In this document: in pieces, positions 20-48,607 of the stretch | Layout of the letters: every line of letters starts with the position of its first letter | Position numbering within the stretch: the stretch's first letter is position 1 | Origin: a virus | Taxonomy: Duplodnaviria > Caudoviricetes | Virus record (IMG/VR): IMGVR_UViG_3300046615_000451 | Span: 1-64,000 of that record | DNA: 64,000 nucleotides | Strand: one strand, 5' to 3' | Program-made: the position numbers and the translations under genes | The notes under the pieces: generated by a model | Database searches by the model: none | What the model was told of the DNA's origin: nothing | The model's input: the letters and a program-made list of their open reading frames with translations, nothing else

Positions 20-2665
20 GTGCTCTACACCTATGTCGATCCTGAAGGCGTGGCGGTGGCGTTCAAGGGCGATATTTCCGGGATTGCCCGCGACTTGCCG
101 AACCTGAAAAGCTTGATGGCGCAGGAATGGGGGCCGGTGAAATTCCGCGCCGTGTTTGGTGAGGATGCAGCGCCGGCGGACGTTGAGGCTTACCAGGAAG
201 AACAGGCCGCCATTGCCCAGCGCAAACAGGGCTCGCTCGATGAGGCGGCGCAGGCCATTGCTGATCAGAAGCTGGCGCAGGAACAGGAACAGCTCCGGAT
301 CCAAGCAGAAGCCGACGAAACCGCGCGGATCGTGGCGCAGAACCAAGCGGACGACCAGGCTGAATTTGAGCGCACCATCGGCGCCGGCACTTCTGAAAAC
401 CCACTCTACCAGGCCTATCTCGACACCCTGGAAGAGCTGCCCACCAAGAGCAGCAATGCCGGCTTCTTGGGTTGGGCGGGCATTCGCGCCGGCGAATTTG
501 AACGCCTGAGTAAAGGCCGTATATCGGCCGACAGGGCGGGGCACCTGGCCTACGTGCGCCAGTGGGCAGACGAGCACCTATCGGAGCGTGTGAAGGCTGC
601 AAAGGCACACGGCGCCACGCTGGAAATCACCGCCGAGACACCAGACGCCACCATTGAAGGCGCCAGCGATGAGCAGCTGCAAGCCAAGTTGCTGGCCGTG
701 GCCAAGGACTTCTATCGCGGCCTGAGTCATGCCACCAAGGACATTGCCCGCCGCCTGGAGAAAGGCACCTACGACCGCACCGACGCCATTAAGGCGCTCA
801 AGCAGAACCGCGAGTACCTGATTGAGCGGGTGCAGGCGAGCGCCGAGTGGGACGCCGACATGATGGCGCGTATGGGCCGCCAGTACGGTGAGAAGTCCGT
901 GGCCGAGCTGGAAGCGATCCACGAGGGCATGGGCGGGGAAATCCGCGGCATGCAAAGCGACCGTGAAATGAACGGTGGCGGTCGGCGCACTGGTCCGGCC
1001 GTGGCCAACGAAGCCGCGCGCGGAATGGGCCAGCACCGTCTGGAACTGGGGATCTACATCAAGGCGCGCAAAGCCGCCGAGCCGGTACCGGCGCCAGTGG
1101 CCGAAGAGCCCGTAATAGACCAGCCAGCGGCAACGCCTGCGCCGGCGGTACAGCACGAAATCATTGAGTACGTCACCAAAAGCACGGGCAAAACCCTGCG
1201 CGGGATCATCCGCACGGACTTGAGCCAGGCCGAAGCCAAGACCATCGACCCGCACAGCTGGCGCATGAACGGCGGCTACTTCATTCGTGAGAAGTATCTG
1301 GAAGGCGCCACCGCGCATATCCAAGCCGCGCCGGCGCCGGTTGTGCTGTCGCCTGAGCAGCAAGTGGAGAAAGCCGCCACTGACGAACGCCTGGCCGAAG
1401 AACGCCGCCAGAAAGCACTGGGTAGCCAGGTCGAGAAGCTGCGCAGCGTGGCGAACAAGGCCATTGAAGGTGGTGAGGCTGGCATGGGCCAGGACCGCAA
1501 CACCAACACCGCCAGGCGCGCCGGTATGGCCGCCAGTGCCATCGCCAAAGCATCCGCCAACAAGGCCGACGGTCAGACGCTCAACAACATCGCAGACGCT
1601 ATCGAAGTCGGCGCCGGTGGCCTGCTGACCAAACTCAGCAGCCGCGCCCAGCTGGAAGAGCTGCAAAGAGCCTTGCGCATGGCGCAGTACGAGACGGATC
1701 GGCGCCTGAGCTATAGCGAGCAGTTGAAGCGCAAAGGCCGTCCGTTCGATGACGAAGACTTGAAAAACGTCGTCATGCCGAGCCAGGTAACGTGGGCGAG
1801 CCGCTTCAATGACGCCGCCAAGATCATTGCCAAGAAAAGCCCGACCGGCAATGCCCGCCTGATCGCAGCCCTGTACAAGATGGGCGCCCGCTCCGAACGC
1901 TTCACCATGAACCCCGAGGATGCCGCGATTACCCGCAAAGCCTACGACGTGCTCAAGGGTTTGAAAGAGGGGTACACGCTGCAAGACCCGATGGAAAGCC
2001 TCGCCCGCCAGGAGCGTTTGGCCCGGATGGGGATCACCGACGCCTCAACCTTGCGCGAAGCCACGCGCGAGCTGTTGCCCATGATGTCTGCAAAGACCGA
2101 AGAGAGCGCCGTCAAAAAAGCTGAGCGGGCCATTATTGGCCAGAAGGTCGGTATCGACTTTTTCCCAACGCCTGCAAACGTGGCGCAGCGCATGGCCAGG
2201 CTGGCGGGTATCAGCAAGGGCATGCGGGTACTGGAACCAAGTGCCGGCAACGGCAACCTGGCGGACGCTGCAAAGGCGGACGGCGGGGAGGTGGACGTGA
2301 TCGAGATATCCAGTCAGCTGCGCGACATCCTCACGGCCAAGGGCTACAACGTCGTTGATCACAACTTTGACGGCTTCACGCCCGAGCAGCCATATCAGGC
2401 GATCCTGATGAATCCACCGTTTAGCCAGCGCCAGGACGCGGCGCACATCATGCGCGCCTATGGAATGCTCGCCAGTGGTGGGCGTCTGGTAGCGATTGCC
2501 GGGGAAGGCGTGTTCTTCGGTCAGGATCAGAAGGCTGTCGCTTTCCGCACTTGGCTGGACACTCACAACGCCACGGTTGAAAAGCTCGATGGCGGCACGT
2601 TCAAGGATAAAGAGCTGTTGGCGCAAACCGGTGCCAATGCCCGTCTGATCGTCCTCAAAAAGTAG
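20..2665 (+). CDS. DarB-like/large polyvalent protein with C-terminal N6-adenine DNA methyltransferase domain; 5' end probably lies outside the window
   Basis: DFFPTP, VLEPSAGNG (motif I) and NPPF (motif IV); frame is open from position 2; directly upstream of the capsid gene. Confidence 0.7.
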   Translation: MLYTYVDPEGVAVAFKGDISGIARDLPNLKSLMAQEWGPVKFRAVFGEDAAPADVEAYQEEQAAIAQRKQGSLDEAAQAIADQKLAQEQEQLRIQAEADETARIVAQNQADDQAEFERTIGAGTSENPLYQAYLDTLEELPTKSSNAGFLGWAGIRAGEFERLSKGRISADRAGHLAYVRQWADEHLSERVKAAKAHGATLEITAETPDATIEGASDEQLQAKLLAVAKDFYRGLSHATKDIARRLEKGTYDRTDAIKALKQNREYLIERVQASAEWDADMMARMGRQYGEKSVAELEAIHEGMGGEIRGMQSDREMNGGGRRTGPAVANEAARGMGQHRLELGIYIKARKAAEPVPAPVAEEPVIDQPAATPAPAVQHEIIEYVTKSTGKTLRGIIRTDLSQAEAKTIDPHSWRMNGGYFIREKYLEGATAHIQAAPAPVVLSPEQQVEKAATDERLAEERRQKALGSQVEKLRSVANKAIEGGEAGMGQDRNTNTARRAGMAASAIAKASANKADGQTLNNIADAIEVGAGGLLTKLSSRAQLEELQRALRMAQYETDRRLSYSEQLKRKGRPFDDEDLKNVVMPSQVTWASRFNDAAKIIAKKSPTGNARLIAALYKMGARSERFTMNPEDAAITRKAYDVLKGLKEGYTLQDPMESLARQERLARMGITDASTLREATRELLPMMSAKTEESAVKKAERAIIGQKVGIDFFPTPANVAQRMARLAGISKGMRVLEPSAGNGNLADAAKADGGEVDVIEISSQLRDILTAKGYNVVDHNFDGFTPEQPYQAILMNPPFSQRQDAAHIMRAYGMLASGGRLVAIAGEGVFFGQDQKAVAFRTWLDTHNATVEKLDGGTFKDKELLAQTGANARLIVLKK

Positions 2666-13761: not shown

Positions 13762-14973
13762 TTATGCGTGGACGCTTGCCAAGGGCTGTCTTGGCGTCGC
13801 GCGCTTTTCGACATACGAAGGCGCTACGCTGCGTTCCATCACATACTTGGCCCAACGGTCCATCAGCGGGCGGCGGCGTTCCAGCAAGTTGCCCCGGTTG
13901 TAGGCGCGGGTGGTGGCGTTGCCCACGGAGTGCGATAGCGCTACTTCACACAGATCCGACGGGAACTTGGTTTTCTCGGCTGCCCACATCCGGAACGTGG
14001 CGCGGAAGCCGTGCGGCGTGGCGCTTTCCCCGTAGCGGATGAGCACGCGGCGCATGGCGTTGTTGGCCATGATCGCCTCAAGGGTGCGGTTCGGAAAAAT
14101 CAAGCTGCTCTTGCCACGGGTATGCACGTCTTTGAGCACGGCCATGGCCGCATCACTCAGCGGGATCTGGTGCGGCTCGCGGTTTTTCATGCGCTCGGCC
14201 GGAATGTTCCAGGTTTTGGTTTCGAAATCGATTTCGTCCCAGGTCGCGCCCATGGCCTCGCCACTACGGCAAGCTGTCAATATTACGAATTGCAGGCAGC
14301 GCGCGGCGCGGGTGATATCGCCTTCCAATTTTTCCATGAAGGCCGGTAGGCGCGAGTAGGGCATGGATTCCAGGTGTGTGGTTTCCGGTACCGACTGCGA
14401 CAGGATGTTTTGCAGGTGCCCGCGCCAGCGCGCCGGGTTTTCGCCGGTGCGGTGGCCACGCGTTTTGGCGAAGTCGAGGATCAGCTCGATGCGGTTTCGC
14501 ACGCGGCGGGCCGATTCTGGCAATTCACGCCAAATAGGCTCAAGGACCGACATCACCGCTTTCGTGTCGATGTCACTGACCGGCATCAGGCCGATTATTG
14601 GGAATACGTGGTCGCGCAGAGAGCTGAACCACTGGGCGGCGTGTTTCTCCGACCAGCCGTGTTTATAGCGCTCAATGCGTTCTAATGCTTCGTCTTGAAA
14701 GGTAACGGTCGGTTTGGTCTGCTGGTGTTTCTGCGCCAGCGGATCAATACCGTTGTTGATCTGTACGCGCAATTCCAGGCATTTGGCCCGAGCTTCCGCC
14801 AGCGACACGAGCGGGAACGAGCCCAGCCCCATGTCGTGACGGTCGCCGTCGAGCTGGTAGCGGAAGATCCAGGATTTTGCACCGGTCTTAGTGACGCGCA
14901 GGGACAAGCCATTCTTATCCGTGTACGTCGCTGGGATGGTGATGTTTTGGATCACTTTTTGTGTGAGAGCCAT
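13762..14973 (-). CDS. int: P4-family tyrosine integrase with N-terminal arm-binding domain
   Basis: GLSLRV..TGAKSW...Y arm domain; catalytic residues in CRSGEA, HGFR, LSH and RAY are intact. Confidence 0.93.
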   Translation of the reverse strand: MALTQKVIQNITIPATYTDKNGLSLRVTKTGAKSWIFRYQLDGDRHDMGLGSFPLVSLAEARAKCLELRVQINNGIDPLAQKHQQTKPTVTFQDEALERIERYKHGWSEKHAAQWFSSLRDHVFPIIGLMPVSDIDTKAVMSVLEPIWRELPESARRVRNRIELILDFAKTRGHRTGENPARWRGHLQNILSQSVPETTHLESMPYSRLPAFMEKLEGDITRAARCLQFVILTACRSGEAMGATWDEIDFETKTWNIPAERMKNREPHQIPLSDAAMAVLKDVHTRGKSSLIFPNRTLEAIMANNAMRRVLIRYGESATPHGFRATFRMWAAEKTKFPSDLCEVALSHSVGNATTRAYNRGNLLERRRPLMDRWAKYVMERSVAPSYVEKRATPRQPLASVHA

Positions 14974-42403: not shown

Positions 42404-42426
42404 ATGGTGGTTTCAGGTGCTGGGGA

Positions 42427-42950
42427 AGTGGACGCGTATAGCCCTGCGTGGCGTCCACTGGCTTGACCAGCTGGTTAACGGGGGCAGTGGTACCCCCATC
42501 GGCCTAACTTCGGAGGTCGGTGGGGTGTTTTAAGGGTTACGCATAACCGGAGCGCTTTGTGAAGAGCGCTGCGGTATGCAGTAGGCCGAAAGGCGAGCAA
42601 GCATGGCCGGGGCTTCCTACCGGTTGTAGAGGCGCCAGTAACGCGGGTTGACCATGCGCCTAAGCGCGTTACCTGCTGCATTTCGAATTTGCGCTCTGCG
42701 CGGATAGCTTGGCCTCCTTAAGGGGCATGTGATGCGGTCGCTCGTTGTTGGTGGTCAGGTGTGCGGTTTGCACTCGGCATATGGCGTCCTTAGACAGTGC
42801 GCTGAAACACCACGGCATGGATAACCGACAGGGAGAAAGGTATTACCACCTTTGCGGCGCCGATCAGTAGCGTTCCCGTTGGCTGATAGTGGTGGGGGTC
42901 TACCAGGACCCACGCCCAAAAGAATGGCCCGCACTGCGGGCTATTTTTTT
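42427..42950 (+). ncRNA. Candidate structured non-coding RNA or long leader
   Basis: About ten consecutive hairpins with G-U pairs, a GAAA tetraloop and a 4-way junction, ending in an intrinsic terminator. Confidence 0.45.
42924..42950 (+). terminator. Intrinsic terminator
   Basis: gcccgc/gcgggc stem plus tattttttt. Confidence 0.8.
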
Positions 42951-43021
42951 AACGTAAGGCGCAAGAAGTTGGCCGCGTTACCACGGCCGATAGCGAACAT
43001 ATTACGCATTAGGGATAGCAG

Positions 43022-44095
43022 ATGCCGCGCAAGCCAGAGACTGAAAAACCTACGGTGTCGAGGGATGATTTATCCCCGTCCAAGGCTCCCGCGCGCTCTC
43101 GAAAACCTGCAAAACCGCGCGCTACTAATGCCGACAAGGTGAAAAGCAGCAAAAATCCGGCCACCACGGAAGCAAAAAAGCCCGTGAAAGCTGCTGCTAA
43201 ACCCGCAGCTAAACGCAAGCCTCGCAGCGCGGCCACGATTGGAAGGACTGCGATCAAGAACCCGGTAAAGCTCACCCCTAAGGCACAGCAAGCCATTGAT
43301 ATCTCTGCTTTCCAGGGGCTGGACGCTCGACAGGCAAAGTTCGTGGATCTGTGGCTGGTCACCTACAACGGCGCTCAGTCCTACAGGGACGCGGGTTACA
43401 AGTGCAAGAACGATAATGTTGCGCGGGTGGGTGCTCACAAACTGCTAACTAAGGTTAAAAACCACCCTTATACGCTCGCTCGACAGGTTGAACTGTTCTC
43501 ACGCACCGCCGATGTGCAAAACCAGATCGTCGCCACCTTTCACGCGGCCTCCTTTGCCGATCCGCGGGAGCTGGTCGAGTACGTGCGCCGGTGCTGCCGC
43601 TATTGCTACGGCATCGATCACAAGTTTCAGCTGCGCCCCAGTGAAATGGAGCGCCGCCGCCAGCAGTACGAGGCCGACAAAGCCGCTCTCAAGGCCGAGG
43701 GAAAGGAAATTGGTGAGTTCGATGAGCTGGGTGGTGTGGGGTACGACGGCAAGAAGTCGCCCAACTACGATTGCCCCGAGTGCGACGGCGAAGGCGAAGG
43801 CCGTGCACTGTTCAAAGACAGCTCCACCCTGTCCCCTGCCGCCCTGACGCTGTACGAGGGTGTGAAAGAGGGCAAGGACGGTACCGAAATGAAGGTCGCC
43901 AGCCAGAAAGGCTATCGCGACTCCCTGGCCAAGCTGTTCAACATGAACGTAGAGCCGGCTGTAGTGGTGAATGTGGGTATCAGCGAGGAAGAGCTTGAGA
44001 AAATCCTGGCGCTTGCCCAGGCGAACACCGAGAAGAATCGCGAGGCCATGGCCGGCCGCGCCGAAGAGCTGGCCAAGATAGGGATCGTGAATTGA
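43022..44095 (+). CDS. terS: Terminase small subunit (PacA-like role)
   Basis: QAKFVDLWL..YNGAQSYRDAGY HTH; FADPRELV, CCRYC, CPECDGEG, LYEGVKEGKDG; basic K/P/A N-terminal tail. Confidence 0.8.
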   Translation: MPRKPETEKPTVSRDDLSPSKAPARSRKPAKPRATNADKVKSSKNPATTEAKKPVKAAAKPAAKRKPRSAATIGRTAIKNPVKLTPKAQQAIDISAFQGLDARQAKFVDLWLVTYNGAQSYRDAGYKCKNDNVARVGAHKLLTKVKNHPYTLARQVELFSRTADVQNQIVATFHAASFADPRELVEYVRRCCRYCYGIDHKFQLRPSEMERRRQQYEADKAALKAEGKEIGEFDELGGVGYDGKKSPNYDCPECDGEGEGRALFKDSSTLSPAALTLYEGVKEGKDGTEMKVASQKGYRDSLAKLFNMNVEPAVVVNVGISEEELEKILALAQANTEKNREAMAGRAEELAKIGIVN

Positions 44096-44373
44096 AGCCT
44101 TGCAGCCCCACCGCCGACCAGGTGAAGAAATCTCGCGCCACGACCGGCCTGAGCCAGCGTGAAAGCGCGGAGTTGATCAGTGTCAGCCGTAGAGCCTGGC
44201 AGACCTACGAAGACGGCACCGTACCGATGAAAGTCGGCCTGTGGGAGCTGTACCAGTTCAAAACCGGACAAATATGGGTCCGTCCGTTGCCTTTGAAGGC
44301 TCAGAAGCGGGCGACATTACGCCAGGGTAGGCAAGAAAACTTAACGCCATTCAAGGCTAAGTCACAGGAGTAG
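44092..44373 (+). CDS. Small XRE-type HTH protein
   Basis: GLSQRESAELISVSRRAWQTYEDG. Confidence 0.75.
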   Translation: MKPCSPTADQVKKSRATTGLSQRESAELISVSRRAWQTYEDGTVPMKVGLWELYQFKTGQIWVRPLPLKAQKRATLRQGRQENLTPFKAKSQE

Positions 44374-44379
44374 GCATAC

Positions 44380-45039
44380 ATGCAATCACAACAATCAGTA
44401 GCTGTTGAGCGTCGTTCACCTGTTGCGGCACCAGGTGCAAGCATCGTGAACGATATCGGTCTGTTGAATGCCGGTCAGATCCCGGCCTTCCGGGTGTACC
44501 TGGAGGAAAGCGGCCTGCTGGTCCGTGATTCGGCCGGCTCCGGGCAGTTCTTTCACGTCCGCCTGCCTGAGTTGCCGCGCTGGTTGGCGATTGAGCGTGG
44601 TTGTGGTGGTGCGCCGGTAACGCCGGACGTGCTGCGCCCCTTCGTGGCCAGCTTCCTCAAGAAGCCATTGGATAGCGCAATTGGTGAAGTCCGGGCCGCC
44701 CGTCAATCTGCCGAGCGCGCCGTGGCCCGTGCTGCGCTGGCGCTGCCGGCGTCTGTTGTCGGTGCCGCCGAGCCTGCCCTGGAGTCGGTCCACGCCACCG
44801 TAACGCGAAAATTGCAGGCCGCCGCATCAGAGTCGTGGCGTCAACCTGGCCACGCTCCTGTCGCCGCCCCTGCCCCCTTATCGCGCTACCTGAGCGACCT
44901 GCGCGACGACCTGGCCCTGCATGCGCCGATCAGCCTGCCCGTGAATCCCTCAGCAGACGACATGCTCCATAACGCTATTCGCCGCTGGGCTTACGCGGAC
45001 ATGATGCTTGCAACACGCACCGCCAAGGCCGGGGATTAA
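44380..45039 (+). CDS. Hypothetical protein
   Basis: C-terminal LRDDLALHAP...RWAYAD.ML..R segment. Confidence 0.55.
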   Translation: MQSQQSVAVERRSPVAAPGASIVNDIGLLNAGQIPAFRVYLEESGLLVRDSAGSGQFFHVRLPELPRWLAIERGCGGAPVTPDVLRPFVASFLKKPLDSAIGEVRAARQSAERAVARAALALPASVVGAAEPALESVHATVTRKLQAAASESWRQPGHAPVAAPAPLSRYLSDLRDDLALHAPISLPVNPSADDMLHNAIRRWAYADMMLATRTAKAGD

Positions 45040-45235
45040 CCGGGAGAGTACAAGCCAATGGTTTGCCGTTACTGCGACGGGGCCAGGGTCGTTTGGCGCA
45101 CAGGTGCGCACGGCCCTTACACCCTGTGCCAGGACTGCAAACGTCGGAACTGTGAGCGGGGCACGCGCGCCCTGCCTCACGGGCTCCACGAATGCGTCCG
45201 CGCCCAACTTCAACTGAAAATGCTGTGAGCCCCAT

Positions 45236-45694
45236 ATGAGCAAGTCACAGAAAACCCTGTTAGCCGCCACTGAATTGAATCGCGCCACCCGCCTGATGCG
45301 GTTGCAGCACGCCAACGCGGTGTTGATCGAGATATCGAAGGTCGGGAACCACACATGGGCGAACGAAGCGGGGGACGTGTGCCGCTTGCGCCTCACCATC
45401 GACGGCCGCGTGCATTTCCGCGACCACAACCCGGAAACGCCGACCATCGACCTGCACAGCACCGCCAAGGGCGCCAACGGCTTCTGGCTGGGGTTTCCCT
45501 ACAAGGGCTCCGAGGCGCTGGTGCTGCGCGGGCTGCGCGACTATGTGGCGAAGGGGACCAAGATTCACCGCACGTTGCTGGTGCCGCTGGTAAACGGCCG
45601 CCTGGCTCGTGGGTATACCGCCGCCGACGTGGCGCTGATCGAGGATCGGTTGAAGTTCGTGCCGATCTTTGTTGAGCCAGGGGCGCGGCCATGA
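45236..45694 (+). CDS. Hypothetical protein, remote paralogue of 22146-22814
   Basis: See pattern given for 22146-22814. Confidence 0.55.
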   Translation: MSKSQKTLLAATELNRATRLMRLQHANAVLIEISKVGNHTWANEAGDVCRLRLTIDGRVHFRDHNPETPTIDLHSTAKGANGFWLGFPYKGSEALVLRGLRDYVAKGTKIHRTLLVPLVNGRLARGYTAADVALIEDRLKFVPIFVEPGARP

Positions 45695-46278
45695 TCTTTT
45701 TGAATCGCGCTGATTTTGAGTATGCCGCCAAGGAAGCCGGGATTACCGACCTGGAGCACGACGGCGACGGTTACGCCAGCGCCCACACACAGGCGGCGTA
45801 TGCGGTCTGGAAGAGCGTGGCATTCCCACTTGGGGATAAGGGTGATGCCCCATTGGTATGGGTAAACATCCGCGGTGGTAAAGCGGTTGGCCTGTCCACA
45901 ACGCGCCCGAGCGGGCCTGAGTCGCCGCTATGGCCCAAGCGCCGCGCACAGGGTTGGGAGCCTTCAAGGCCGCTGCATATCAACGTGCCGGGGGTGAGCC
46001 CTGAGGTGATGGCGGTTATCCGTGAGTTACAGCGCCAGCGCCAGGAGGAAGGCTATTCGGTTGAAAGCGATATCGAGCAGTACCAGGGCGGGGAGTTGGC
46101 GCGGGCGGCGGCGTGCTATGCGATGCAGGCGGCCGGGGTGTATCCGATGCGGTTCGCCAGCTTCTGGCCATTCAAGTCGAAGATGAAAACATGCCTGCCG
46201 GCCGAGTCGCTGACAAAGGCGGTCGCGTTGATCCTGGCCGAGGTTGAGCGCGCCAAGGCGCAAGGGTCCGCCCGATGA
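45691..46278 (+). CDS. Conserved phage hypothetical protein
   Basis: ELQRQRQEEGY...GELARAAACYA...FWPF...KAVALILAEVER. Confidence 0.65.
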   Translation: MIFLNRADFEYAAKEAGITDLEHDGDGYASAHTQAAYAVWKSVAFPLGDKGDAPLVWVNIRGGKAVGLSTTRPSGPESPLWPKRRAQGWEPSRPLHINVPGVSPEVMAVIRELQRQRQEEGYSVESDIEQYQGGELARAAACYAMQAAGVYPMRFASFWPFKSKMKTCLPAESLTKAVALILAEVERAKAQGSAR

Positions 46279-46964
46279 GCACGGCACCGCTCTACGAGGA
46301 TGCTCGCTGGCCGGCGTTCATCGCTCGTTACGCCAACGACCTCTGCGCGTTTGCTGCTGATGTCCTCGGCATGGAGGTAACGCCAGCGCTCGCCCGTACC
46401 TACTGCCTCGCCTCACTTCCGGGCTGTCGTGTGTCCATCGCTACTGACATCGATCTGCATGGAGTCGACGCAATCAGCCCGATGGCGCCTATCGCGATCT
46501 GGCGCCTGCTGTGTTGCCCCGAGTCCAGAACCTTGGTGACCATTCCGTTTGGTGGTGGTCGTGCCCGCAAGCAGCAATACGCGCGTTTACTGACGTGGAT
46601 GGCCGGGGGCGCCCACAGCTGGTTGCGTGCCTATATCAGTGTTGACGCTACTCAAATCCATCTGAGGCGCGAGTATACGGGCGCAAAAATCCTGTTTCTC
46701 TGTGCCGATCATAGAAGCCCCGAGAACCTGGCTGGGTTCTTCGGTGATCACATTTGCTGGCTGATGGAAGCCGCCGAGGACATCCCTGATGCGTGTTTCA
46801 GCGTGGCACTCGCGGCGATGCGCAATCCTGGCGCCAGCATGTTGCTCACCAACAAACCTTGGCGGGAGTCTGGATTTGCCGCCGACACGCGCGGAAGACT
46901 GAGCCGGGACCAGGGTGGATCGTGGGATGTCTGCACCCTGGAAAGCGCGCAAAGCCAGCAATAA
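46275..46964 (+). CDS. Degenerate paralogue of the TerL ATPase domain (Walker A and B lost, no nuclease domain)
   Basis: Colinear with TerL residues ~12-240: RWPAF.ARYA, GCRVS.A, IA.W.LLC, PENLAG, IPD, SGF, QGG.W. Confidence 0.85.
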   Translation: MSTAPLYEDARWPAFIARYANDLCAFAADVLGMEVTPALARTYCLASLPGCRVSIATDIDLHGVDAISPMAPIAIWRLLCCPESRTLVTIPFGGGRARKQQYARLLTWMAGGAHSWLRAYISVDATQIHLRREYTGAKILFLCADHRSPENLAGFFGDHICWLMEAAEDIPDACFSVALAAMRNPGASMLLTNKPWRESGFAADTRGRLSRDQGGSWDVCTLESAQSQQ

Positions 46965-46989
46965 GTGCCATCAAATCAAGCAGTAAGGT
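46948..46989 (+). promoter_or_regulatory. Putative late promoter for terL (CGCAAA-N30-TAAGGT)
   Basis: Motif spacing; begins in the last codons of the dead paralogue. Confidence 0.5.
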
Positions 46990-46991
46990 GT

Positions 46992-47015
46992 AAGGGCCGG
47001 TAATACGGCCCTTTT
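46992..47015 (+). terminator. Terminator-like hairpin before terL
   Basis: aagggccg/cggccctt stem plus tt. Confidence 0.55.
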
Positions 47016-47030
47016 GCGTTAAGGAATGGC

Positions 47031-48596
47031 ATGGCCAGGGCGAAGAAAGAAAAACAGTTGGTGCTCGATGCCGATCCGCGCTGGCCCGCGTTCGTCGCCC
47101 GGTATGCCTTCGAACAATACAAATTCGCCGTCGAAGTGTGCGGCATGGGTATTGTGGGCAAGCCCGTAACGCACCAGCAGAAAGAACTGTTTGATGAAGC
47201 CTCGCCCTATGGGTGCCGGGTGTCGGTGGCGTCTGGCCACGGTACCGGCAAGACTAGGAGTTTTGGCGTTATAGCGCTTTGGCACCTACTCTGCTATCGC
47301 AATTCAAACACCTACATCACCGCACCAAAGCTCAAGACCGTGCGCGAAGGTGTATGGAAGGAAATCACCACGCTCAAGGCGCAGATCGAGAAAGGCCCGC
47401 ACGCCTGGATTGCGCAATACATCACCATCCAGGCCGAAAAGGTCTACATCAACACCAAGTCGGCTATCTGGTACGTCACCACCCGTACAGCACCCCGCGG
47501 CGCCCCTGAGAACCTGGCCGGTACCCACGGCGATTACCTCTTATGGATGGCGGACGAAGCCTCAGGTATCCCGGACGAAAACTTTGGCGTGATCGGTGGC
47601 GCCCTCACCGATCCGCGTAACCGCTTCATCATGGCCAGCCAGCCTACCCGTAGCAGCGGGTTCTTTCGTGACTCGCACCACAGTAAGAGCAAGCGCCAAG
47701 GCGGGGCGTGGACAAGCCTCACGTTCAGCTCCGAAGAAAGCACGTTGGTGGGTATCGAGTTCATCAAGGAAAAGCTCATCCAGTACGGTGGGCGCGATGA
47801 AATGGAGTACCAGATCAAGGTCCGGGGCATGTTCCCGACCAACTCCAGCAAGTACCTGCTCAGCCAAGCAGCCATTGAGCGCGTCATTGAAGGCCCGAAC
47901 GTCATCCTGCCGGGCGAAGCCTATGGTCACCTGATCGTGGTCGACGTAGCGGCGGGCGTAGGGCGAGACAAGACCGTGGCCACGCATATGAAGGTGATCG
48001 GCAATGGCGACCGCATGAGCGCAGATCGGCGCCGGATTGAGGTGGTCGCGGTACCGGTCTACACCAACACCGAAGACTGGACACCGGTGGCGGTGAAGGT
48101 GCTGGACTACGCGGCGCAATTCTCCAACGTCACGATCATCGTCGACACCAACGGCATGGGTAACCAGTTCCTCAAGCGGCTGATAGAGCTGTCGGGGGGC
48201 GGGATCCATGCCAAGGGCTGTCGCTGGGGTGAATTGCCGTTCAGCAACGAATACCGCAAGCGATTCCTTAACCAGCGGGCGCAGTCCACGGTCCACCTGG
48301 TCGAGGCGATCAAGGACGGTGTGGTACGCCTGTCGAGCCAGTACAAAAAGGATCTGATCGACCAGGGCAGCCGTATTCCTTACTTCCTGGATGAGTTGGG
48401 GCGCTACCACATCGCCCGCAAGCAGGACATGGCCGCGGAGGGGCTTCCATCCCCCGACCTTTTGGACACGCTCGCCATGGCGTTTCTGGAATCTGCGGAG
48501 TACGTGCCGGCGCAAGGCGAGGCCGTCAGCCTCAGCACAGACAGGCGCCAGGCCGCACTTGATGCTGCGCGCGAGGCGCTGGCTGGCATCACGTAA
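47031..48596 (+). CDS. terL: Terminase large subunit (P1 PacB-like)
   Basis: Walker A GHGTGKT, Walker B WMADEA, nuclease VDVAAGVGRD and PDLLDTL. Confidence 0.95.
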   Translation: MARAKKEKQLVLDADPRWPAFVARYAFEQYKFAVEVCGMGIVGKPVTHQQKELFDEASPYGCRVSVASGHGTGKTRSFGVIALWHLLCYRNSNTYITAPKLKTVREGVWKEITTLKAQIEKGPHAWIAQYITIQAEKVYINTKSAIWYVTTRTAPRGAPENLAGTHGDYLLWMADEASGIPDENFGVIGGALTDPRNRFIMASQPTRSSGFFRDSHHSKSKRQGGAWTSLTFSSEESTLVGIEFIKEKLIQYGGRDEMEYQIKVRGMFPTNSSKYLLSQAAIERVIEGPNVILPGEAYGHLIVVDVAAGVGRDKTVATHMKVIGNGDRMSADRRRIEVVAVPVYTNTEDWTPVAVKVLDYAAQFSNVTIIVDTNGMGNQFLKRLIELSGGGIHAKGCRWGELPFSNEYRKRFLNQRAQSTVHLVEAIKDGVVRLSSQYKKDLIDQGSRIPYFLDELGRYHIARKQDMAAEGLPSPDLLDTLAMAFLESAEYVPAQGEAVSLSTDRRQAALDAAREALAGIT

Positions 48597-48607
48597 CAAA
48601 CAATGTT

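Follow-up and report, generated by a model that had tools for sequence, protein, structure and literature searches.

In this phage genome, the gene directly upstream of that for the large terminase (terL) encodes a protein of 229 residues which is genuinely paralogous to the N-terminal, ATPase-bearing half of the neighbouring TerL. The upstream gene, which we refer to as ORF229, is under purifying selection and is not debris. The protein has the fold of a motor domain and is predicted, from its sequence and structural model, to be unable to bind or hydrolyse ATP. The window analysed here is the first 64 kb (64,000 nucleotides) of an IMG/VR virus record of 83,356 bp with direct terminal repeats, and the features discussed below are collected in Table 1.

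Table 1. Features of the window, with positions counted from its first nucleotide
Feature	Position	Strand	Description
First ORF of the window	20-2662		Match to phrog_15406 (E 1.3e-94), giant phage proteins that bear DNA methyltransferase domains; probably DarB-like
Tyrosine integrase	13762-14973	-	Full-length; phrog_1, E 2.5e-50
Stretch without genes	42404-43021		618 nt, 5' of terS; possible pac or regulatory region
Hairpin	42494-42525		Terminator-like, within the stretch without genes
terS	43022-44095	+	Small terminase, first gene of the operon; PF03592 Terminase_2, E 1.2e-12; phrog_51, E 7.6e-21
HTH protein	44092-44373	+	HTH matches
219-aa protein	44380-45039	+	Matches the flanks of a 431-aa protein of relatives that bears a dead TerL nuclease-like domain
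4-Cys 56-aa protein	45058-45228	+	Conserved gene between terS and terL
152-aa protein	45236-45694	+	Conserved gene between terS and terL
p195	45691-46278	+	Conserved upstream gene, translationally coupled to ORF229 by an ATGA overlap
Deletable segment	46258-46946		689-nt in-frame deletion; p195 fused to the last 6 codons of ORF229
ORF229	46275-46964	+	229 aa; predicted catalytically dead paralogue of the TerL ATPase domain (pseudo-ATPase)
Stem-loop	46994-47015	+	GGGCCG-GTAATA-CGGCCC, then TTTT; lies between ORF229 and the ribosome-binding site of terL
terL	47031-48596	+	521 aa, intact PacB-type large terminase with ATPase and nuclease domains; phrog_2, E 1.5e-28

Fold and residues of ORF229

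A single colinear BLASTP alignment joins residues 9-227 of ORF229 with residues 15-237 of TerL (34% identity over 227 aa, E 2e-39). When all 83,356 bp were searched with TerL by tblastn, ORF229 and terL were the only two TerL-like places found; there is no third TerL-like gene in this genome and nothing else in it matches the C-terminal half of TerL. ORF229 is about 26% identical to P1 PacB and the ORF229/TerL pair was therefore assigned to the PacB group. The initial annotation had given the gene the position and length listed in Table 1 and had described it as colinear with the N-terminal half of TerL. Both statements agree with the alignment, and all of the shared motifs that it quoted were found in the two proteins (RWPAFIARYA/RWPAFVARYA, GCRVSIA/GCRVSVA, QGGSW/QGGAW and PENLAG in both).

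A structure search and an AlphaFold comparison had also been suggested on that occasion. The AlphaFold2 model of ORF229, which was built from 40 family members, proved to be confident (pLDDT 91.3, pTM 0.90) and its best PDB matches in Foldseek were solved TerL ATPase domains, namely those of P74-26, Sf6 gp2, D6E, T4 gp17 and HK97 (top entries 4ZNL, 4IFE, 5OEB, 2O0H and 6Z6D; probability 1.00). The Avs3-bound TerL structure, 8DGC, was also observed among the fold matches. ORF229 hence has both the ASCE/TerL ATPase fold and sequence homology to TerL, as judged by Foldseek and BLASTP. Searches of ORF229 and its neighbours against Pfam, NCBIfam and PADLOC gave only HTH and zinc-ribbon hints.

Residues were compared between 33 members of the dead-copy family and 25 PacB-type TerLs. 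No Walker A P-loop (G/SxxxxGK[ST]) is present in ORF229, where 68-SGHGTGKT-75 of TerL aligns to T-DIDLHGVDAI. The stretch from S68 to K74 is invariant in the TerLs and entirely lost from the dead copies, where GK[ST] occurs in none of the 33 members and no P-loop was found in any. The Walker B sequence WMADEA of TerL is WLMEAA in ORF229, with E[D] in most relatives; across the dead copies D175 is replaced by E and E176 by D or A, and the catalytic glutamate is gone. The adenine/Q motif (T47, Q49 and Q50 of TerL) and the coupling (C) motif (S203 and Q204) are likewise invariant in the TerLs and not kept in the dead copies. In addition, the C-terminal RNase H-like nuclease domain is missing, as ORF229 stops level with TerL residue 237, where that domain starts. 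The name of a catalytically dead copy of the ATPase domain had been proposed earlier from the change of GHGTGKT to DIDLHGV, the altered Walker B and the absent nuclease domain; all three are borne out here, fold and motif losses agree with the name, and the lost Q and coupling motifs can be added to the list. A retained arginine finger was considered and rejected, since the arginine that aligns near TerL R105 in close relatives is unconserved across the wider family.

Several residues were observed to be common to the dead copies and the TerLs. These are R11, F15, R18, Y19 and F26 in the N-terminal helices (ORF229 numbering), together with W76, P91, G112, W116 and the PE..G motif. Other conserved residues are specific to the family and have newly arisen in the dead copies, where SP.AP is found in the place of the P-loop and WL.E[D]A is conserved as well. 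It is the combination of a motor-like fold with the loss of the nucleotide motifs that leads us to predict neither ATP binding nor hydrolysis, and since ORF229 lacks the residues for binding and burning ATP, it would have to act by binding something.

The packaging operon and its genome

The genome that carries ORF229 is that of a P1-like Pseudomonas phage. P1-like genes found in it include a PmgG-like head morphogenesis gene, a P1-type portal, a tail sheath and a baseplate protein, and no near-identical DNA was detected among phage records by megablast. This P1-like genome carries a tyrosine integrase, and its relatives are plasmids on record.

The operon runs from terS to terL in the order given in Table 1, with the stem-loop and its T-run between ORF229 and terL, and this gene order is common to the relatives. 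The terL product keeps Walker A (SGHGTGKT) and Walker B (WMADEA). The start of ORF229 overlaps the stop of p195 in the sequence ATGA (46275-46278), and coupling to the upstream gene had been noted in the initial annotation. The gap from ORF229 to terL is 66 nt. Every examined relative with a copy has the order p195, dead copy, terL, and when the hairpin is included the order still holds down to 23% identity. The 4-nt overlap between p195 and the dead copy also recurs at every junction that was checked. Relatives with this order include two plasmids, CP048608.1 of P. fluorescens (81 kb) and pKF715C of P. putida (94.7 kb), as well as P0043, which is the deepest branch of the family. For p195 itself no family match was found, and its AlphaFold2 model (pLDDT 76, moderate) gave no PDB fold at E <= 0.001 and no useful Atlas match.

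In relatives with and without ORF229 alike, compensatory changes preserve the stem of the hairpin before terL, which may serve within the packaging operon to terminate or attenuate transcription or to stabilise RNA. A repeated late-promoter operator was also considered for this element and rejected, as the motif was found only once in the window. In a soil RNA-seq library (run X12), contigs span the whole terS-terL stretch (window 43000-48600) of a relative about 93% identical, and one assembled contig of 2,427 nt runs from p195 through ORF229 and the hairpin into terL. DNA carry-over is possible in this library and the contig is taken as a weak hint of joint transcription of ORF229 and terL.

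Many relatives were observed to carry a further paralogue in the packaging operon. It corresponds to the nuclease domain of TerL and in all cases has another residue in the place of the first catalytic Asp (VVDVA to VRV or VVV). Its sites are L001:5185-6480, L006:3151-4443, L007:3173-4459, L008:3178-4473 and L011:7557-8276. In some relatives it lies within a 431-aa protein after the HTH gene, and one relative has it as a separate gene of 239 aa that follows terL. The ORF229-type copy and this nuclease paralogue form a two-piece 'dead terminase' in many relatives. In the window, the 219-aa protein matches the 431-aa protein of L001 by BLASTP in two parts (residues 13-184 to 2-158 and 156-213 to 375-429); the nuclease-like insert is missing from it and only both flanks match.

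Three close relatives have an intein-bearing terL (L004:6757-9051, L016:5050-7362 and L021:4956-7232), each read as a single frame of 758-770 aa. The insert of about 240-250 residues lies inside the Walker A loop, after TerL residue 70-72 or so, which corresponds to about 47238-47246 of the window. It was identified as an intein because one of the three is annotated as a 'Hint domain-containing homing endonuclease'. The terL of the window is free of it.

Family, selection and natural loss

A word-indexed search found 14 intact homologues of ORF229 (228-240 aa, 96-40% identity), and when 1.84 billion cluster representatives were searched exhaustively with HMMER, numerous further short proteins (185-262 aa) were found that share its losses. 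All 162 retrieved relatives were screened by alignment to a PacB-type profile, and the dead copies amount to at least 33 lineages (185-262 aa). All 33 group together in a single clade among the PacB-type TerLs when a maximum-likelihood tree is built (SH-aLRT 99). This single clade points to one old duplication of a PacB-type TerL as the likely origin of the family.

The selective constraint on ORF229 was compared with that on its neighbours using unsaturated pairs. The dN/dS values were 0.18-0.31 for ORF229 and 0.19-0.32 for p195, with a similar value of about 0.16 for TerS, and 0.04-0.09 for TerL. Tree path lengths gave the dead copy an evolutionary rate about four times that of the TerL ATPase domain. 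The loss of all catalytic motifs and the dispensability of the gene in some relatives might suggest a functionless, slowly decaying leftover of a partial terL duplication. Such decay is hardly credible, however, as the frame is intact in 33 of 33 lineages down to 23% identity, the dN/dS values are low, the model is confident and well folded, and new conserved residues (SP.AP and WL.E[D]A) have appeared. Simple decay of ORF229 is thus contradicted. The initial annotation had argued for a retained function rather than decay and had named dN/dS and synteny as the means to check it; intact homologues down to about 23% identity, the conserved order of p195, dead copy and terL in relatives and the dN/dS range of ORF229 all speak for its view.

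Allele shuffling between the dead copy and TerL was hinted at by the large tree and is not claimed, as the grouping seen for TerL is not rejected by an AU test (p-AU 0.22) of the data for the dead copies. The dead-copy tree is thus not significantly different from the TerL tree and shows no sign of allele swapping, which argues against ORF229 as a weapon that binds the TerS or TerL of co-infecting related phages or satellites and so poisons or hijacks their terminase, by analogy with satellite proteins that interfere with packaging. Its shape would suit competition for TerL partners, it diverges fast, and the intein in the TerL of relatives shows that mixed infections are frequent. We nevertheless regard such a weapon as quite improbable, for ORF229 is also encoded, and apparently expressed, with its own terminase, which it should poison too.

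ORF229 is optional. In a contig from wastewater (run X24), position 46257 is joined to 46947 at a 6-nt microhomology, which leaves p195 in frame with the last six codons of ORF229. In the viral contigs L013 and L016, TerL is 87% and 97% identical to that of the window and the gene order is unchanged except that ORF229 is absent; p195 directly adjoins the conserved hairpin and terL, and the junction is as in X24. P. atacamensis SM1, a cultured strain, has an 81-kb plasmid in which the same arrangement and junction were found. It is therefore seen that p195 stays where ORF229 is deleted. Because every deep lineage has a copy, these absences are best read as losses, and such clean loss in close relatives, including the plasmid of a cultured strain, implies that any role in packaging is non-essential.

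Candidate roles and known systems

Few viral machines have been studied as well as terminases, for which usually just TerS and TerL are counted as subunits. The ORF229 family adds a widespread, selected and apparently non-catalytic third protein to the packaging operon. Comparable copies have arisen separately in P1/D6-like phages and also, as the literature indicates, in jumbo phages. This repeated independent origin points to a general need, which could be the regulation of packaging or a way of dealing with immune sensors that watch TerL.

The initial annotation had offered three candidate roles, namely a terminase decoy against Avs, a dominant-negative brake on packaging and a weapon against co-infecting related phages. 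We tentatively favour a non-catalytic binding subunit or regulator, which would take the place of TerL on a partner and tune the start of packaging, and regard it as a real possibility rather than a settled assignment. ORF229 would be made from the packaging operon through its translational coupling to p195, with co-expression with TerL assumed, and would act purely by binding. We infer both its partner and its effect on packaging. It might replace TerL on, or bridge, either TerS bound to pac DNA or TerL itself, and the contact would be made through the N-terminal helices and the core surface that ORF229 and TerL still have in common. In lambda gpA and other TerLs, the N-terminus is a region that docks TerS. 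As a result, the frequency or timing of terminase cutting and of packaging initiation would be tuned, which would be helpful to the phage and non-essential. The position in the operon, the coupling, the common N-terminal surface and the presence of a dead nuclease paralogue favour such a terminase-associated role. Several points count against it, among them the clean loss of the gene in close relatives. The terminator-like hairpin lies between ORF229 and terL, competition of a dead subunit with TerL would be expected to carry a cost for the phage, and the roughly fourfold faster evolution relative to the TerL ATPase domain also fits a protein engaged in an arms race.

A second candidate role is counter-defence. 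ORF229 might engage host sensors of the TerL ATPase fold (Avs1-3 and Upx) without activating them, or it might shield nascent TerL and let the real terminase go undetected. Avs2, Avs3 and Upx target TerL at its ATPase domain, and the Avs2 pocket accommodates stand-alone TerL-like ATPase proteins such as T4 vs.8 (PMC13601566). Furthermore, 8DGC is among the fold matches noted above, ORF229 diverges fast and it is present or absent among close relatives, as is often seen with accessory anti-defence genes. The logic of a decoy is weakened by the fact that target binding itself activates Avs sensors and that Avs2 contacts the terminase-bound ATP, which ORF229 is predicted to be unable to hold (PMC13601566). 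Its fixed place in the packaging operon across all deep lineages is also unlike typical anti-defence islands, and no PADLOC matches were found near it. We therefore consider a counter-defence role unlikely. It is equally doubtful that ORF229 is a dedicated immune-evasion device, that is, a mimic of TerL without ATP which is made just before TerL and blocks Avs1-3 and Upx while leaving them untriggered. If this were true, the independent copies beside terL in several phage groups would represent a general and undescribed counter-strategy against terminase sensing.

Among cultured Pseudomonas strains, the gene is part of the element in P. fluorescens (CP048608.1) and P. putida (pKF715C) and is naturally absent from it in P. 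atacamensis SM1 (plasmid). The system is easy to test.

The closest known proteins are PacB of P1 and P7 and the TerL of the window, with which ORF229 has in common the ATPase fold, clear homology, the N-terminal helices and PENLAG. It differs from them in being half as long, optional and about four times faster evolving, and in lacking the Q motif, Walker A, the catalytic Glu, the coupling motif and the nuclease domain. The favoured role as a binding subunit is nearest in kind to that of Ppi from SaPIs and Rpp from PICIs, which are small non-catalytic satellite proteins that bind a terminase subunit and redirect or block packaging. The kind of mechanism proposed for ORF229 is alike, but the folds are unrelated, and Ppi and Rpp are encoded by satellites against a helper phage whereas ORF229 is encoded by a phage beside its own terL.

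P1/D6-like phage-plasmids of E. coli were found to have their own dead ATPase paralogue of the PacB type, as for example in vB_EcoM-813R1 (356 aa, L018:4989-6059). Walker A (PHGIGET) and Walker B (IVINSAE) are both broken in this protein, which is annotated as hypothetical, has an extra C-terminal domain and is encoded between ssb and hxr (the P1/D6 type lies near ssb/isaA). ORF229 is not a paralogue of the P1/D6 type, since the two form separate clades with SH-aLRT 99 each. The placement of the P1/D6-type copies beside another TerL branch suggests an independent duplication. No description of dead copies of the PacB type was found in the literature for either Pseudomonas or P1-like phage-plasmids.

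Truncated large terminases that adjoin terL have been noted briefly in Rak2-like jumbo phages (CBB_274 beside CBB_275) and in the Sinorhizobium phages phiM12 and phiN3, where they were remarked on as unusual and of unknown function (PMC5259590). As in these phages, ORF229 is a shortened TerL-domain gene directly beside a full terL. Their copies come from gp17-type (T4-like) terminases whereas ORF229 comes from the PacB type and belongs to its own clade; when set against CBB_274 by its published description, ORF229 most likely arose by a separate duplication. Phage T4 has a further stand-alone protein, vs.8, which is a homologue of the ATPase domain of T4's own terminase and for which an anti-defence role has been suggested; it retains Walker A and B, activates EcAvs2 and fits the Avs2 pocket (PMC13601566). 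Both Walker motifs are lost from ORF229, in contrast to vs.8.
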